Virus record (IMG/VR): IMGVR_UViG_3300030613_000008
Span: 1-64,000 of that record
DNA: 64,000 nt
Reading direction: 5' to 3' (one strand)
From: a virus
Taxonomy: Duplodnaviria > Caudoviricetes
Shown piece by piece: positions 1 to 6,064 of this stretch. Position 1 is the first letter of the stretch. Each line of letters begins with the position of its first letter. The position numbers and the translations under genes were made by a program. Below the pieces are notes generated by a model. The model worked only from the letters and a program-made list of their open reading frames with translations, did no database searches and was not told the origin of the DNA.

Positions 1-229
1 TGCAGCGGCGCGGACACGAAGGCCTCGTTCCCGAAGCTGAGCACGGTGGGCGGCTGGCTCTATTGCCGCGGCGCGGACACGAAGGCCTCGTTCCCGAAGC
101 TGAGCACGGTGGGCGGCGGGCTCGATTGCCGCGGCGCGGACACGAAGGCCTCGTTCCCGAAGCTGAGCACGGTGGGCGGCTGGCTCTATTGCCGCGGCGC
201 GGACACGAAGGCCTCGTTCCCGAAGCTGA
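1..229 (+). repeat. 63-bp coding tandem repeat, about 3.6 copies
   Basis: Units start at 1, 64, 127 and 190. They are identical except AGC/CGC, TGG/GGG and TAT/GAT. Confidence 0.95.
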
Positions 230-723
230 CGAAGAGAGAATGTGGAGACGCCGTTGCCCGCGCCCGTGTTGGCCGTGCGTTCCGCCACAAGGGCTTCCTG
301 TTCGCCGACGGCATTTTGTCTGAGATCGTGAGCACCAGAGATCTGCGCGGTGGTGCGAAGGTCCACATCATCCGCGTTGTCGGCAAGACGAAGGTCACCT
401 ACTGCATCGAGTCCGACGGCACGTATTCGCACGGCGACACGATCAAGGAAGCGCGGGAGTCGTTGCTGTACAAGGTGGGCCAGCGCGACAAGAGCGTGTA
501 CGCGGGATGGAAGCTGGACCGCAAGATAACGGGCAAGGAGGCGGTGGAAAGCTACCGGGTGATAACGGGTGCGTGTGAGGCGGGTGTCCGCTCATTCGTG
601 ACGGCGCACCTCGGCAAGCTCAAAGCTCGGTACACCGTGAAGGAAGTGATCGACCTCACGCGAGGGCAGTACGGCAACCAGGTGTACGAGGAGTTCTTTA
701 CCATCGCGGCGAAGGAGGGGTGA
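1..723 (+). CDS. LRR-like/L-domain tandem-repeat phage protein (5' end lies outside the window)
   Basis: Frame is open from base 1. 21-aa repeats CxGADTKASFPKLSTVGGxLx, then a C-terminal domain with GACEAGVRSF. Confidence 0.7.
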   Translation, partial: CSGADTKASFPKLSTVGGWLYCRGADTKASFPKLSTVGGGLDCRGADTKASFPKLSTVGGWLYCRGADTKASFPKLTKRECGDAVARARVGRAFRHKGFLFADGILSEIVSTRDLRGGAKVHIIRVVGKTKVTYCIESDGTYSHGDTIKEARESLLYKVGQRDKSVYAGWKLDRKITGKEAVESYRVITGACEAGVRSFVTAHLGKLKARYTVKEVIDLTRGQYGNQVYEEFFTIAAKEG

Positions 724-724
724 G

Positions 725-1288
725 ATGGGACACGGAAGTGACCATTGTTCAGAGCACGATCATCCGCCACCGTGCCCGCATTGTCTGGAGGACGACGTGA
801 AATCAGCCGACGCCGAGATCTCCTCCCTCACCGCTCGCCTAGCCGCAAGCGAGGCGGCGCTGGCGGGGGAACGGGAGAGGGCGGAACAACTGGAAGCAGA
901 CCGAAACGAGTGGAAGGGAGTTGCGGATGGTCGGCTGATAGAGATCGTCGATTTGCATTCCATCAACGCCGCCGCCTTGGCCCGCGCGGAGAAGGCGGAA
1001 TATACAGCAGCGCAGGTGCCACAACTGCGGACGCGCATACAGCAACTCGCCGCCGCTCGCGAGGATGCGGTGCGAGAGTTCGCGGAGTGGCTTGCGGCGC
1101 AGCATCCCGTGTGCCAATTCGTGCGCCTAAATAGAGACGGCGTGCCGGACGACTCGTCCATCGTGGACGTCGCCAACATCTACCTCGCGGTAAAGGAGCC
1201 GACCGGTCAACTACCGTCCGCGGAAGCGGGCGGCTTGGAAGGAGTAGCGATGCCAACGCGAAACGGACAGGGGAAAGAGGGAGACTAG
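725..1288 (+). CDS. Hypothetical coiled-coil phage protein; C-terminus extended by the inserted element
   Basis: SD AGGAGG, N-terminal Cys/His cluster, heptad-like region. The last ~27 codons lie inside the omegaRNA. Confidence 0.7.
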   Translation: MGHGSDHCSEHDHPPPCPHCLEDDVKSADAEISSLTARLAASEAALAGERERAEQLEADRNEWKGVADGRLIEIVDLHSINAAALARAEKAEYTAAQVPQLRTRIQQLAAAREDAVREFAEWLAAQHPVCQFVRLNRDGVPDDSSIVDVANIYLAVKEPTGQLPSAEAGGLEGVAMPTRNGQGKEGD

Positions 1289-1455
1289 AGTGGCCAAGGT
1301 AGGGACCAGCAAGGTAACTGCCGTTCGAAGGCAACTGAGCCGACTTCCCGTGGCAGGGAGGACGACGTCGGAGGTGCTCCCCAAGCCCCCGACCTCTCTG
1401 TCGGCCAGTCTCGATGGGGTGCAAACACGGGTTAAAGGTTCCCGGCTTACAGCGA
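1186..1455 (+). ncRNA. omegaRNA (HEARO-like): 5' guide ~1186-1205, scaffold from 1206
   Basis: GTCAACTAC plus hairpin CCGTCCGC-GGAA-GCGGGCGG then CTTG; GACTAG; hairpin GTCGGAGG-TGCTCCCCAAG-CCCCCGAC; CGATGGGG able to pair with CCCCA. Lies directly upstream of the PLMP ORF. Ends are approximate. Confidence 0.8.
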
Positions 1456-2454
1456 TAAAAACCTACGTTCTGGTGGTTGGTTCAGATGGGGTGCCGTTGA
1501 TGCCAACGACGCCGAGTAGAGCGCGGAGATGGGTGAAGTATGGAGAGGCAACGCCGTTCTTCGTGCGTGGGATCTTTTGCGTGCGGTTGAACCGGGAGCC
1601 GTCGGCACAGGTCAAGCAGGAGATCGCAGTGGGTATCGATCCTGGTTCGAAGAAGGAAGGATTCACGGTGAAGTCGGAAGCCCACACGTTCCTGAACATC
1701 CAAGCCGATGCGGTGACGTGGGTGAAGGATGCCGTAGAAATCAAGCGAAACATGCGCAGGGCAAGACGATTCAGAAAAACTCCGTGCAGAGAGAATCGGA
1801 AGAACCGTGCGCGTGGTTGCCTTCCTCCATCAACGAAGGCACGCTGGCAGTGGAAGTTGAGGATCGTCGCTCAACTGGCGAAGGCATTTCCGATAACGAA
1901 TTTCGTTGTCGAAGACATCAAGGCGCTCACGAAGGGGCAGCGTCGATGGGATATAAGTTTCTCTCCACTAGAAGTGGGCAAATCGTGGTTTTACGAGGAA
2001 CTTACTCTGTTTGGCAGTGTGCATTTGAAGCAAGGATGGGAGACGGCCGAGATGCGCACAGCGGCCGGTTTGAAGAAGTCCAAGTCGAAGATGTCGAATG
2101 TGTTCGAGGCGCACTGCGTGGATAGTTGGGTGCTGGCAAATTGGTACGTTGGTGGCCACATCACGCCTGATAACACGGCGATGTTGTGTATCTCCCCAAT
2201 CCGACTTCACAGACGACAACTGCATGTGCTTCAGCCTGCGATTGGCGGAGTGCGGAAACCATACGGCAGTACACGTAGTCTTGGATTCAAGCGTGGCTCC
2301 CTGGTATCGCATCCGAAGTACGGAAAGTCTTACGTTGGAGGAACAAGAAACGGTCGTATTAGTCTGCATGAACCCAAGAGCGGCAAGCGACTGACGAGAG
2401 ATATAAAACCACAGGATTGCAGATTCGTGACCTACAACACATGGAGGCCGACCG
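1206..2454 (+). mobile_element. IS200/IS605-derived OMEGA cassette (omegaRNA + isrB), no tnpA
   Basis: Begins GTCAACTACC, is visibly more AT-rich than its flanks, and is bounded by GCCGACCG at 1198-1205 and 2447-2454. Removing it restores a clean gene junction. Confidence 0.85.
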
Positions 2455-2462
2455 ATGGGTGA
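1455..2462 (+). CDS. isrB: IsrB RNA-guided nickase (PLMP + split RuvC, no HNH); start codon uncertain
   Basis: DGVPLMPTTPSRARR (PLMP), GIDPGSK (RuvC-I), MRRARRFRK (bridge helix/RRXRR), FVVEDI (RuvC-II), AHCVDS (RuvC-III). No HNH or CxxC between RuvC-II and III. About 335 aa. Confidence 0.88.
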   Translation: MKTYVLVVGSDGVPLMPTTPSRARRWVKYGEATPFFVRGIFCVRLNREPSAQVKQEIAVGIDPGSKKEGFTVKSEAHTFLNIQADAVTWVKDAVEIKRNMRRARRFRKTPCRENRKNRARGCLPPSTKARWQWKLRIVAQLAKAFPITNFVVEDIKALTKGQRRWDISFSPLEVGKSWFYEELTLFGSVHLKQGWETAEMRTAAGLKKSKSKMSNVFEAHCVDSWVLANWYVGGHITPDNTAMLCISPIRLHRRQLHVLQPAIGGVRKPYGSTRSLGFKRGSLVSHPKYGKSYVGGTRNGRISLHEPKSGKRLTRDIKPQDCRFVTYNTWRPTDG

Positions 2463-2664
2463 TGTGCTTATCACGTGCAGCCGGTGCGGAGCGAAATTCA
2501 CCGATGGTCTATGGTGGGAGTACACCGTCCCGACCACCGGGACCGAAACACCGCGAAGACGCGGTGCACCGTTCCAATTTCGTCCCGGCCAGTGTCCGAG
2601 ATGCAAAAACATGCCCACTGGTGACGGCACAGCGTTCGATGAAAAGGAGCCCTCCCATGACTAG
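2455..2664 (+). CDS. Small Zn-ribbon protein
   Basis: CSRC...CPRC; SD GGAGG at 2443. Confidence 0.65.
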   Translation: MGDVLITCSRCGAKFTDGLWWEYTVPTTGTETPRRRGAPFQFRPGQCPRCKNMPTGDGTAFDEKEPSHD

Positions 2665-3058
2665 CACCCTACGCGCCCAAGCCGCTGCGGCGGCAAGAGA
2701 CTACGACGCCGTCCACATGAACCATTTCCCGGAGATGCCTCATTATGCTCGGGTCATGTTCGTCGAAGGCTACCTCCTCGGCCACGCTGCGGGCGTGGAG
2801 GAGGGCGCGCGGGACGTGTCGAGACAGGCGCACGACGCGATGGAGCGAGCCATCGGGAGGGCGCGGAAGGCGAAGGAGATTGCGCGCACGGCCCGACTCC
2901 GGTGTGAAATGAGTGCTGTGGTAGGATGGATCGCAGCATTGCAAGAGGAGATGTTCATCAATCCCGAGACGAGAATCCTCTCCTCCCTCGCGCCCGGCAC
3001 GGCAATTATAGAGGACACGGATGTGCCAGTGCTGATCAGGGGAGATAATCTGAAATGA
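2657..3058 (+). CDS. Hypothetical protein
   Basis: AAGGAG then ATG at 2657; overlaps both neighbours. Confidence 0.55.
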   Translation: MTSTLRAQAAAAARDYDAVHMNHFPEMPHYARVMFVEGYLLGHAAGVEEGARDVSRQAHDAMERAIGRARKAKEIARTARLRCEMSAVVGWIAALQEEMFINPETRILSSLAPGTAIIEDTDVPVLIRGDNLK

Positions 3059-3261
3059 AAATCGTGGACATAACTGCTTGGACAGTAGTCAGTGGAGTAG
3101 GTCATATTGTGGTTTCTTCCAATTCTGGTTGGATAATCACGGCATGCGGACACTGGCTCACAGGAGATGTCGAACACACACAGCCAAAGCGCATCTGCCG
3201 CTCTTGCAGATCTGCTTTGCCGAGTCTCAGCAAGGTGCAAGATAATGGAACGAAAATGTAG
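3055..3261 (+). CDS. Small Cys/His protein
   Basis: ATGA overlap; H..TACG...CRSC. Confidence 0.5.
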   Translation: MKIVDITAWTVVSGVGHIVVSSNSGWIITACGHWLTGDVEHTQPKRICRSCRSALPSLSKVQDNGTKM

Positions 3262-3317
3262 TTGCGGGGGAATTGACATCGGGGTTGGCGTCATGCACGA
3301 GCCGACTTGCGAAATGA

Positions 3318-3791
3318 ACGACACCGGACCGTTGCTGGCAGCGGTGGACGCGGTCAGACCTCGCGCCGGAATTGGTATGGAGCACCGTACACCTCGCCGC
3401 CCGCCACCGTGTCGGCTCCCTCGTGGCGGCGACGTGCGCGTTCAACGCCTATTTCCAGAAGACCGTCTATCGGTTTCGCGAACCAGACGCGACGCGCTGT
3501 TGGGACACTTCTCGCATCATGCCGGCCGCGCTGGCGCCGTTCGTTCTGCGGATCACCGAGGTGAAGGCCGAACGGCTCGGCGAGATCAGCGACGCGGACG
3601 CAATCGACGAGGGGATGATGCACTGGGCGCGAACTGACCCGAGTCCATTCCCCGAGGCGGAGTGTGTGCGCCCGTCATGGTGGTTCGGAACGTATTGGGA
3701 TCAACTCTATGGTGCGGGTTCCTGGAACGACGACGCGCAGAAGTGGGTTTGGGCGTATAAGTTCGAAATCGCAGAGAGCAGGATAGGATGA
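3318..3791 (+). pseudogene. ASCH/PUA-like phage protein, apparently lacking its N-terminus
   Basis: LRITEVKAERLGEISDADAIDEG...WDQLYGAGSW...WVWAYKF. Frame is closed by TGA at 3315 and has no good SD/start. Confidence 0.5.
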
Positions 3792-4414
3792 AACCGAAAT
3801 CCACCGACGATCTCATCAAACGGTACGAGCAACTGGTCGACGCAGCCGTTGCCGAGTCGCGCCTCGAATCACACCTGGACCGTTTCGCCGTCGCCTACGG
3901 GCTCGTGGCTGTCGCCTTCTGCCTCGTCGCGCTCGCGGTGCTGCTTGGGGGATGCAGCCCGGTGGCACGGTCGGTAACTCCGATCACGCCGATCTCCTCC
4001 TCCCACTCACAACTCACGGCCACGGAATACGACCTCGCGGAGACCGAGTTCTCCGGTGACCTCGCATCGATGCCGGCGGAGCTCCAAGCCGCGGCCGACG
4101 CGGACTGCCAGCGGCTGCTCGAACGCCGAGACGCGGCGAGCGCCGTGGTGCTCGGGCTGGTCGGGCTGACCGGAGCGGGCGGGCTCGCGACGATCATCCC
4201 AAAGGACGCCGAGGGAGCCGAGCGCAAGGGGTGGGACATCGGGTTGGGCGCGACGACGCTCGCGGCGGCGACGACGGCGACCATTCTGGGAGCGATGGTA
4301 AGAAATTGGAGTGCAGAGTACGAGCGCCGCTGCGTGAGCGAGACGCCCGCCGTGGTAGAGCACCCGGCCAGTGACGAGGTTGACCATTCTCCCGACCCCG
4401 ACGGCGGGGTGTGA
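3788..4414 (+). CDS. Membrane protein / putative lipoprotein
   Basis: Hydrophobic stretch ending LLGGC, plus two Gly/Ala-rich hydrophobic helices. Confidence 0.6.
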   Translation: MKPKSTDDLIKRYEQLVDAAVAESRLESHLDRFAVAYGLVAVAFCLVALAVLLGGCSPVARSVTPITPISSSHSQLTATEYDLAETEFSGDLASMPAELQAAADADCQRLLERRDAASAVVLGLVGLTGAGGLATIIPKDAEGAERKGWDIGLGATTLAAATTATILGAMVRNWSAEYERRCVSETPAVVEHPASDEVDHSPDPDGGV

Positions 4415-4439
4415 CCGTCCGCCCGTCCCGTGCTAGACT
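4411..4439 (+). promoter_or_regulatory. Putative extended -10 promoter (leaderless transcript)
   Basis: GTGACC-N17-TAGACT with TGC upstream of the -10; ATG 7 nt downstream at 4446. Confidence 0.45.
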
Positions 4440-4445
4440 TCCCGA

Positions 4446-4625
4446 ATGGACCGCGACGATGAACTGACCCGCCCAATCACTCTACCGCCTCGCCAGCCGC
4501 CCCGGTGCGCCAAGCCTGCCGAGTCCCCCTGCGCTTTTCGAGACGAGTCTGGCGCGTGTAATAAAGCCGTGACGACGTGCCGTCACAAGATCGACGCGAA
4601 ACAACTTGACACGTGCAACCCGTAG
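4446..4625 (+). CDS. 59-aa Cys-rich protein missed by the ORF track
   Basis: MDRDDELTRP...CAKPAESPC...CNKAVTTCRHK...CNP*. Fills the intergenic gap, with its ATG at the predicted +1. Confidence 0.45.
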   Translation: MDRDDELTRPITLPPRQPPRCAKPAESPCAFRDESGACNKAVTTCRHKIDAKQLDTCNP

Positions 4626-4634
4626 CACTATGCT
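4606..4634 (+). promoter_or_regulatory. sigma70-type promoter for the lipoprotein gene
   Basis: TTGACA-N17-TATGCT; dyad GTGACG-N6-CGTCAC at 4569-4586. Confidence 0.7.
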
Positions 4635-4652
4635 AGATATAGAGGTGCGAAA

Positions 4653-5543
4653 ATGAAGACTACAACGACGATTCTGGCGGTTCTGCTTTGGGGGTGCTCG
4701 GCGAGCCCGCAGACGGCGTTTATCCCGGACGGTGGGGATAGCGACGGGGACACGGACGCGGACTCTGGCGAGGATGCCAGCACGGACGTCGACAGCGACG
4801 GGGACGCGGGTCCGGACGCCTCAACCGACACCGACACGGACACCGACACGGACACCGACACGGACTCTGATTCGGATACGGGAACCGAGGACACCGAGAC
4901 GGAGACGACCGATACGGAAACCGAAACGGTCGATACCGAGACGGACACGGGGACGGAAGATACGGATACCGGCCCTGATACCGACACGGGAATCGACCCG
5001 CCTGATACGGATACCGAGGTCGACACCGAGACAGAGGATACCGACACGGGGAGCGACACCGACACGGGACCGGACACCGACACCGGCCCCGACGTCAACG
5101 CCTGTGGCTTCGTCGAGATGCCCGCCGGCACGGTGTGCGACCCCGACACGGGGCAGGTTTGGGAGGCCACTGTGAGCCCTTCCAGCGAGGGCAATTGGGC
5201 GTGGGGCTTCTGGTACTACTGCGAGCCGTTGACGCTCGGGGGGTTCGACGATTGGCGGATGCCGACTGAAGATGAGATGGCGGCGCTGTGGCGACTCGAC
5301 GACCCTATCATCCTGCCTGAGTTTCCGTTCGAGTGCGACTGGCCCGCGTGGGCCGGGACGGATTGTGGGCACCGCCTGTGGTCGGATTATGGGTACGCGG
5401 AGTTGGGGTATAATCCGATGTTTGCGGCTGATACGTTTAGATACTATTGCTCATACCTAGGTGCGACGGAAGTATCAGACCCTCTATGTCAACACGCTGA
5501 GACGCTTGGCGGTTCGGCATTCACCCGTTGCGTGCGCGGTTGA
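4653..5543 (+). CDS. Lipoprotein with Asp/Thr low-complexity linker and DUF1566 (Lcl C-terminal-like) domain
   Basis: Signal MKTTTTILAVLLWGC; (DT)n tract; VCDPDTGQVWE...YCEPLTLGGFDDWRMPTEDEM...RCVRG. Confidence 0.8.
   Translation: MKTTTTILAVLLWGCSASPQTAFIPDGGDSDGDTDADSGEDASTDVDSDGDAGPDASTDTDTDTDTDTDTDSDSDTGTEDTETETTDTETETVDTETDTGTEDTDTGPDTDTGIDPPDTDTEVDTETEDTDTGSDTDTGPDTDTGPDVNACGFVEMPAGTVCDPDTGQVWEATVSPSSEGNWAWGFWYYCEPLTLGGFDDWRMPTEDEMAALWRLDDPIILPEFPFECDWPAWAGTDCGHRLWSDYGYAELGYNPMFAADTFRYYCSYLGATEVSDPLCQHAETLGGSAFTRCVRG
4740..5095 (+). repeat. GACACC/GACACG hexamer low-complexity coding repeat
   Basis: Encodes the DTDTDT tract. Confidence 0.85.
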
Positions 5544-5713
5544 ACTTCCAATCTCCCACTGACCGCGACGTCTACGCCGACTCGCCTATCGAGTGTCACG
5601 ACCTTGACGGCGTGCCCGTGACTCGTGCCGAGGCGATTGCGCTTGCCCGTGCGAACCGCGCCCGGATTGATGCGTTGATGCGAGCGGAGGTTGAGCGCGA
5701 CGCCGACCGCTAG
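5540..5713 (+). CDS. Small hypothetical protein
   Basis: TTGA start/stop overlap with the upstream gene. Confidence 0.4.
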   Translation: MNFQSPTDRDVYADSPIECHDLDGVPVTRAEAIALARANRARIDALMRAEVERDADR

Positions 5714-5723
5714 CCTATCCCGT

Positions 5724-5752
5724 TTGACAATTCCAACCGCGCGCCCTACATT
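5724..5752 (+). promoter_or_regulatory. sigma70-type promoter, leaderless transcript
   Basis: TTGACA-N17-TACATT; ATG at 5759 is 7 nt downstream and has no SD. Confidence 0.7.
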
Positions 5753-5758
5753 GGGCGC

Positions 5759-6064
5759 ATGGCACGAATCAAGACGACGCGAAACCACCGTCGGATGCAA
5801 TCCGCGATACTGCGGTTGACATCCCGTCTGCCCGGCCGATGGTCGGCGATGGCGTTGACCGAAGCGCTGTGCGCCGACACGAAGTCCACCTACGGCGGGC
5901 GCAACCCCTACGGCCTGGTATCCACGACCAACTGCGCTCTGCTCCGCCTTGTCGAGATGGGCTACATGGAGCGCAAGATGGAGACGACGGACCTCGGCAG
6001 GGTGCGGTACACCTACGCTATCACGGCCAAGGGGCGCGTGGCGGAGAAGGAGTTTGCCAAGTGA
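5759..6064 (+). CDS. Winged-helix DNA-binding protein (PadR/MarR-like)
   Basis: ALLRLVEMGYMERK...RYTYAITAKGR wing motif. Confidence 0.65.
   Translation: MARIKTTRNHRRMQSAILRLTSRLPGRWSAMALTEALCADTKSTYGGRNPYGLVSTTNCALLRLVEMGYMERKMETTDLGRVRYTYAITAKGRVAEKEFAK

Follow-up and report, generated by a model that had tools for sequence, protein, structure and literature searches.

An IsrB–omegaRNA cassette in a phage genome carries a short target duplicate in place of its motif-side hairpin end

The window analyzed here is a stretch of DNA that makes up the initial 64 kb of a virus record of 93.5 kb. It contains a cassette of ~1.25 kb, consisting of an omegaRNA and an isrB gene, which occupies positions 1206–2454 of the phage genome and separates a gene for a coiled-coil protein from a zinc-ribbon ORF (Table 1).

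Table 1. The cassette, its flanking host genes and the repeated junction sequences, in window coordinates.
Feature	Position	Strand	Remarks
Upstream host gene, coiled-coil protein	725..1205	+	Cut two codons before its natural end; reads on to TAG 1286–1288 in the omegaRNA
Guide-encoding flank	1186..1205	+	Left half of host junction J (..AAAGGAGCCGACCG), comprising SD and 7-nt spacer of the downstream gene; directly 5' of the scaffold start
Left copy of 8-bp direct repeat GCCGACCG	1198..1205	+	Abuts the omegaRNA start (1205/1206)
OmegaRNA scaffold	1206..1472	+	Starts GTCAAC; first hairpin 1214–1243; also the guide-side transposon end (IS right end)
isrB reading frame	1290..2462	+	Stop TGA 2460–2462; RuvC D/E/H/D motifs; lacks HNH
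TGGAGG, last conserved isrB codons (W-R)	2442..2447	+	Homology of all relatives ends here; also the SD of ORF 2455
Right copy of GCCGACCG	2447..2454	+	Where relatives have a ~43-nt two-tier hairpin and an 8–12-nt linker
ATGG	2455..2458	+	Target-adjacent motif of the empty site; start codon of the next gene
Downstream zinc-ribbon ORF, 69 aa (MGDV..)	2455..2664	+	isrB stop TGA 2460–2462 lies within its first codons (ATGGGTGA)
Diverged second junction J' (GAAAAGGAGCCCTCCCATGACTAG)	2641..2664	+	End of the zinc-ribbon ORF (..EKEPSHD-stop); compared with J

The isrB frame matched the RRXRR family (PF14239) with an E-value of 2.6e-32, no HNH family matched, and alignment with the IsrB protein of known structure (DtIsrB, PDB 8DMB; E 7e-34) placed its IDPG, VEDI and HCVDS motifs in register. 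The predicted product of ORF 1290–2462 is IsrB, for which 5391 homologues were found. The conserved protein, ~326 aa long, begins near 1467–1473 (..VLVVGSDGVPLMP), carries a PLMP motif near its N-terminus (..DGVPLMP) and leads into a C-terminus that reads W-R-P-T-D-G-stop. Placing this C-terminus on DtIsrB by sequence gave no usable match. The nickase of the cassette is apparently intact. Translation could start at GTG 1473 or at GTG 1290, the latter having an SD. The SD-like GGGAGA is found 5 nt ahead of GTG 1290, and the frame is open through the omegaRNA (1290–1472). The isrB frame likewise remains open for 55–80 codons upstream, through the omegaRNA, in 48 of 120 homologues, and gene callers predict products of 390–415 aa in 40% of the relatives. 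This upstream-open frame may reflect constraints on the RNA rather than a true N-terminal extension.

The 267 nt preceding the conserved IsrB N-terminus aligned with the same region of ~30 phage loci, and in every locus of the alignment of 30 conservation started sharply at GTCAAC, found in the window at 1206. The step between 1205 and 1206 is therefore the guide-side end of the element. An Rfam scan of positions 1–6000, with E-values up to 1, gave no match, HEARO included, and the omegaRNA was consequently defined by alignment. Its consensus fold, derived from 18 loci, comprised 34 pairs, 26 of them with compensatory changes.

The site occupied by the cassette was found uninterrupted in related phages. 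The host junction, referred to in the following as J, reads AAAGGAGCCGACCG/ATGGGTGATGTG and places the insertion site just behind the SD and spacer of the next gene, ahead of its start codon. The reconstructed junction, AAGGAGCCGACCGATGGGTGA(TGTG), was present without interruption in a 205-kb viral contig (L038), and AAGGAGCCGACCGATGGGTGA was also uninterrupted in six metagenome contigs (L041, L042, L044, L045, L046 and L047); the uninterrupted junction in six related phage contigs spans four lineages. The contigs are syntenic with the flanks of the window, with patches of 82–100% identity in the same order. Since the uninterrupted junctions join 1205 directly to 2455, the insert is 1206–2454. 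In these contigs ..(K/E)EPTDG-stop is the ending of the ORF 725 homologue or of a small ORF that follows it (the ORF 725 homologues of L038, L041 and L044 end ..(F/Y)LARKEPT(D/E)(G)-stop), and the next gene starts with MGDV, a start common to the genes after J in L038, L041, L042, L044 and L046. Pattern matches to the left junction in L050 and to the right junction in L043, L048, L049 and L051 were chance hits, with no homology around them.

Searches with the left- and right-junction patterns yielded no other occupied allele, so that one is known, nor did they find J occupied by a hairpin-bearing element, the expected intermediate. In the viral collection, relatives of the upstream and downstream genes were limited to the distant L002, L003 and L039, which lack J. 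The phages that share the locus have genomes of 205.6 kb with terminal repeats (G001) and 212 kb (G002), and the record of the window has 93.5 kb and is 98% complete according to CheckV; as the sharing phages are twice the size of the record, the shared module looks mosaic and gives no sign of close kinship. Further upstream, the gene at 1–723 begins with 63-bp tandem repeats (window positions 1–229), and its homologue in L044 is 85% identical and has more repeat units, visible as staggered BLAST hits.

The left half of J also provides the predicted guide. Six contigs with an uninterrupted J share its 14 TAM-proximal nucleotides without a difference, and all seven uninterrupted junctions match 12–14 motif-proximal guide positions, followed by ATGG. 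The predicted guide thus still matches the empty J of related phages. At the cassette's own right junction, 8 contiguous motif-proximal guide positions match before ATGG (12 with one bulge), out of about 16–20 guide positions.

The initial annotation of the window had pointed out an 8-bp repeat at the two sides of the insert, and a direct sequence search confirmed GCCGACCG beside both junctions (Table 1). The right copy begins at the third base of the AGG codon 2445–2447 and ends at the ATG of ORF 2455. Copies of the 8-mer are common in the GC-rich window (18 on both strands, against 9.6 expected), and the repeat is therefore informative through its placement only; the chance of finding that 8-mer at one fixed position is ~2e-4.

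The annotation had also proposed that isrB borrows the last codons of the host gene and supplies a replacement SD, and both proposals agree with the uninterrupted contigs, where ..KEPTDG-stop is followed by MGDV at the junction. The IsrB codons P-T derive from the 8-nt (or 7-nt) junction duplicate, and D-G-stop is host sequence read in the host frame; in either of the other two frames, isrB would extend for tens of codons. The GGAGG at 2443–2447 stands 7 nt before ATG 2455, the spacing of the host GGAG at 1195–1198, which suggests that the conserved last isrB codons, TGGAGR, can act as the ribosome-binding site of the next gene. On the other side, the upstream ORF runs 27 codons into the omegaRNA, as had been described. 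To call the insertion nearly silent was an overstatement, however, as the upstream protein ends in 27 additional residues in place of its D-G.

Duplication of J is not peculiar to isrB. L038, L041 and L044 each have a different non-IsrB ORF enclosed by perfect J repeats, of 24, 21 and 21 nt, respectively, and a single J is present in L042. It follows that duplication of J at this locus needs no IsrB, and duplication around whatever is inserted is the rule here. The bracketed ORFs are small (58–95 aa), unrelated to each other and all end ..EPTDG-stop; the cassettes lie at L038:3344–3537, L041:635–940 and, on the reverse strand of L044, at ~4860–5180 as oriented. Tandem duplication was ruled out as the origin of the L038 cassette, where the 24-nt repeat alone is shared. 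J was also considered as a ribosome-binding motif used throughout the genome, which was ruled out by its distribution: the 205-kb relative has two copies at this locus and none elsewhere. J behaves like a boundary between cassettes, and its sequence is much more strongly conserved than the neighboring genes.

In all relatives, homology at the protein level extends no further than the W-R codons, TGGAGR. Directly after these codons, about two thirds of 40 related loci have a two-tier hairpin of ~43 nt (for example, ACGCGGCTCCTCC-CCTGTCTGAAGACAGG-GGTTTCCGCCGCG), with folding energies of -12 to -19 kcal/mol; around one third of the 40 distinct loci lack it. After the hairpin come 8–12 nt and then ATGA or ATGG. 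The hairpin encodes the common IsrB tails ..TRLLPxLKxGVSAA and ..TALPLPAKAGSxRA, and such tails are carried by the closest relatives of the window's IsrB (81–83% identical). In the window, 7 nt stand in the hairpin's place. No stable fold was found at 2400–2480 (z about 0), compared with -16 kcal/mol and a z-score of -4.2 for the end of L026, and a profile of the hairpin end, run with nhmmer against the whole 93.5-kb genome, found nothing either past 2462 or anywhere else (best E 2.5). The ending RPTDG was seen in none of the best 119 of the 5391 homologues. Neither of the two observations that the initial annotation had named as refuting it was thus made. The earlier statement that the element has no separate right end thus stands as far as the absence is concerned, the hairpin being missing after isrB and present in most relatives, but the name does not: the TAM-proximal end is the IS left end in the terms of Meers et al. 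(10.1101/2023.03.14.532601).

Whether the linker behind the hairpin belongs to the element was judged from two sides. Its constant length and the enrichment of SD motifs in the left flanks favor an origin in the element, whereas the 96.5% identical L026 and L035 diverge right after GCCGCGTGA, which counts against it. The linkers of the relatives are unrelated to the 7 nt of the window.

Compared with an IS200/IS605 element, the cassette thus has the guide-side hairpin (1214–1243) and lacks the motif-side one, so that hairpins are not found at both ends; the ATGG motif is present, as is an 8-bp duplication that is most likely secondary. The Y1 transposase family (PF01797) was found neither in the 93.5-kb record nor in the records of five relatives; the enzyme could be host-encoded. 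With neither the hairpin nor TnpA, ordinary IS200/IS605 excision is not possible, and the cassette is no longer excisable by the TnpA transposase. The element had been described as immobile, which holds for TnpA only and not otherwise, as the guide still matches empty J in related phages.

Several features of the locus are habits of the family. Of the 30 related loci listed, 28 have ATGA or ATGG as the first start codon behind the element. The reported motif of DtIsrB is NTGA (PMC9581776), and that of GstIscB is TTCAT, or ATGAA in the sense of the gene (10.1101/2023.03.14.532601). By its sequence the ATGG of the window fits this family motif. The motif is not merely a start codon, since in L057 it is an internal ATG codon and in L027 it lies in an SD region. 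In L021 and L037, which represent the same insertion and are 99.8% identical, the fourth base of the motif differs (ATGA and ATGC, respectively). SD-like motifs occur 4–14 nt before the left boundary in 8–10 of 29 loci, compared with ~2 of 28 at control offsets, which indicates that many members, like the one in the window, are placed between a start codon and the SD belonging to it. In 8 of the 29 related phage loci compared, the isrB stop falls within or overlaps the start of the gene that follows, by ATGA overlap in L006, L010, L029, L030 and L036, at +4 in L007, at +5 in the window and at +20 in L020. Borrowing a host stop is therefore common and not special to this locus.

We then aligned the left flank of each locus with its own tail, using non-cognate pairs as the control. 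In L057, the 62-nt tail between the last isrB codon and ATGA matched the 61 nt on the left side of the element with 71% identity and a score of 57 against a null maximum of 36. The repeat lies at 415–476 and ~1706–1767, with a hairpin-less IsrB element in between, and what has been copied is the SD of a 40-aa Lys-rich downstream gene together with its first 13 codons. Changes in the 15 nucleotides nearest the motif are mostly at synonymous sites, and the adjoining 23 nt form a perfect core, a pattern that could be an escape from the element's own guide. A search for the empty site of L057 gave no match. In L030, a 25-nt copy (76%) of the start of the next gene was found in the left flank (p 0.006), the TGGAGA of isrB being aligned with the host SD. 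The same alignments showed no target copy in hairpin-bearing loci, and a weak similarity of 15–17 nt in L028 was not significant. A target copy in place of the end is thus not unique to the window, where the 8-nt copy is the short end of a series with L057 and L030. In the searchable literature, we found nothing on one-ended, target-duplicating phage IsrB cassettes.

We think it probable, though far from assured, that a non-autonomous IsrB–omegaRNA element of the IS200/IS605 (ISC) type arrived at J in the canonical way and later lost its hairpin end by unequal crossover. The arrival would have been ordinary, brought about either by a TnpA supplied in trans or by homing with a canonical copy as the source, because the guide-side end is exactly GTCAAC and the insert stands directly before ATGG. 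The motif-side end, that is, the ~43-nt hairpin and the linker, would then have been removed by an unequal crossover at very short homology between the SD-like TGGAGG of isrB and the SD of an intact J copy, which might have come from a second J in the same genome, such as relatives have, or from the J of a co-infecting relative. As it stands, isrB runs straight into the 7–8-nt duplicate of J and ends P-T-D-G-stop in the host frame, its last conserved codons give GGAGG 7 nt before the next ATG, and its stop overlaps the start of the gene. The present frame would be the one of three that ends isrB promptly, and the survival of this exact joint may be explained by selection that kept the start region of the downstream gene intact and isrB terminated. 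One detail speaks against a crossover within GGAG, which would give TGGAG-CCGACCG: the actual TGGAGGCCGACCG has one G more, so that the homology at the joint would be 1 nt, or a later gain of 1 nt has to be assumed. The order of events was deduced from a single allele. An origin by microhomology had been suggested before, and for trimming at very short homology this is the likeliest course; arrival by microhomology fits poorly with the canonical left terminus and the ATGG. The 8-bp repeat itself, previously taken as the mediating homology, more plausibly resulted from the event, as a partial duplication of the junction; at the joint, the homology that could have been used amounts to GGAG at most, or 1 nt.

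The extra G is accommodated by a different mechanism, in which IsrB from an occupied allele would nick an empty J on its non-target strand, at a point 8 nt ahead of the motif, and the broken end, GCCGACCGATGG.., would prime on the donor at TGGAG/G, bypassing the hairpin end. On this view the 8-bp repeat would represent the nick-to-motif stretch, the footprint of a transposase-free spread driven by IsrB. The joint of TGGAG and GCCGACCG requires no additional base, the empty J sites of related phages fit the guide, and the distance agrees with the published nick position, 8–11 nt before the motif. However, the verified target copies of 61 nt (L057) and ~25 nt (L030) fall outside 8–11, non-IsrB cassettes at J carry 21–24-nt repeats and thus show duplication without IsrB, and with repeat lengths of 0–20 possible, a match in the 8–11 range would occur by chance about one time in five. 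We consider this mechanism unlikely for the window. A broader form of it, in which phage IsrB cassettes repeatedly trade the motif-side end for duplicated sequence of their own target (8 nt in the window, ~25 in L030 and 61 in L057) as the footprint of a nick-started, transposase-free spread, seems a little less doubtful to us, but is still rather unlikely; if true, the 8-bp repeat of the window would mark the nick-to-motif distance.

It is less probable again that the element arrived as a fragment or circle already ending ..TGGAGGCCGACCG and integrated into J at the 8-bp identity in the manner of Campbell. A single crossover of a circle at the shared 8-mer would yield exactly this layout, and the 8-mer is frequent in the genome. 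Against this, eight bases are very short, no relative has a tail resembling CCGACCG, and the canonical GTCAAC terminus and the ATGG after the right repeat would become two coincidences. Chance resemblance, with the 7 nt after W-R being a decayed remnant of the element's own end that happens to look like the left flank, draws on the frequency of the 8-mer (18 copies in 64 kb) and on the fact that an unconstrained alignment of flanks and tails does not single out the window locus. We regard it as very improbable in view of the positional probability of ~2e-4, the identity of the 7 nt with the host spacer of seven uninterrupted junctions and the unrelated linkers of the relatives. That the element is complete, carries passenger genes and has its true end further downstream has nothing in its favor beyond the missing end at 2462. 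It is refuted by the uninterrupted junctions, which join 1205 directly to 2455, and by the genome-wide profile search, which found no end-like sequence in 93.5 kb, and we give it practically no weight.

Among known systems, the DtIsrB–omegaRNA complex of Desulfovirgula thermocuniculi (PDB 8DMB; Hirano et al. 2022, PMC9581776) resembles the cassette in having an RRXRR/RuvC nickase without HNH and with an N-terminal PLMP, a structured RNA of ~270 nt directly upstream, a guide taken from the 5' flank and a 3' motif of the NTGA type (ATGG in the window). The two proteins are 30–35% identical over 290 residues, and the window differs in having no Rfam HEARO match, in being phage-borne, in its missing motif-side end and in that its nickase is a predicted one. 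The non-autonomous IscB elements of the ISGst group (Meers et al. 2023, 10.1101/2023.03.14.532601) share with the cassette an omegaRNA bounded by one end, a motif (TTCAT) abutting the other, no tnpA nearby, an orientation that matches the upstream gene and a guide that matches the joint of the empty site. ISGst keeps hairpins at both ends and shows no duplication, whereas in the window 8 nt of target have taken the place of one hairpin end, which excludes the TnpA 'peel and paste' step.

The free-standing homing endonuclease genes of T-even phages, Seg and Mob (PMC13565253), are likewise nuclease genes set between conserved phage genes, tightly packed and without transposon ends, that are aimed at the allele lacking the gene in related phages. 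Here, too, related genomes carry the uninterrupted target specified by the guide. The system of the window differs in recognizing its target by RNA, in being a predicted nickase and in the very short homology arms offered by J (~14–22 nt on the left and 12–20 on the right). IStrons and IS1341-type TnpB copies that persist without TnpA (PMC13565253) also have an RNA-guided nuclease module left intact after the loss of transposition. The cassette belongs to a different nuclease family, has no intron, and couples the loss of the end to a duplication of the target.

IsrB and IscB are passengers of TnpA-driven transposons, and to our knowledge the only natural role shown for them is to restore an excised copy. 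The locus described here offers a clean natural pair, with the site occupied in the phage of the window and empty in related phages. The transposition end has been replaced by target sequence that restores the start region of the next gene, and the predicted nickase and its guide have been kept; the locus thus provides a concrete pair of target and guide for RNA-guided homing by a nickase. Taken together with L057 and L030, it suggests that such phage modules shift from a transposon to a resident or homing-type cassette, and that the damage done by insertion is repaired by partial duplication of the target.

Two further observations concern hairpin-less loci. In L055 (14–2585), an isrB without the hairpin is flanked by two methyltransferase genes; its stop overlaps the next start (TAATG), and the motif, ATGT, is an exception to ATGA/ATGG. 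The L027 and L028 elements, a pair that prompts one to ask whether copies without the hairpin remain mobile, are 87% identical and sit in the same phage backbone at two points 17–18 nt apart, each before ATGG; they share the short hairpin-less tail GTTG(C/T)TTAA.
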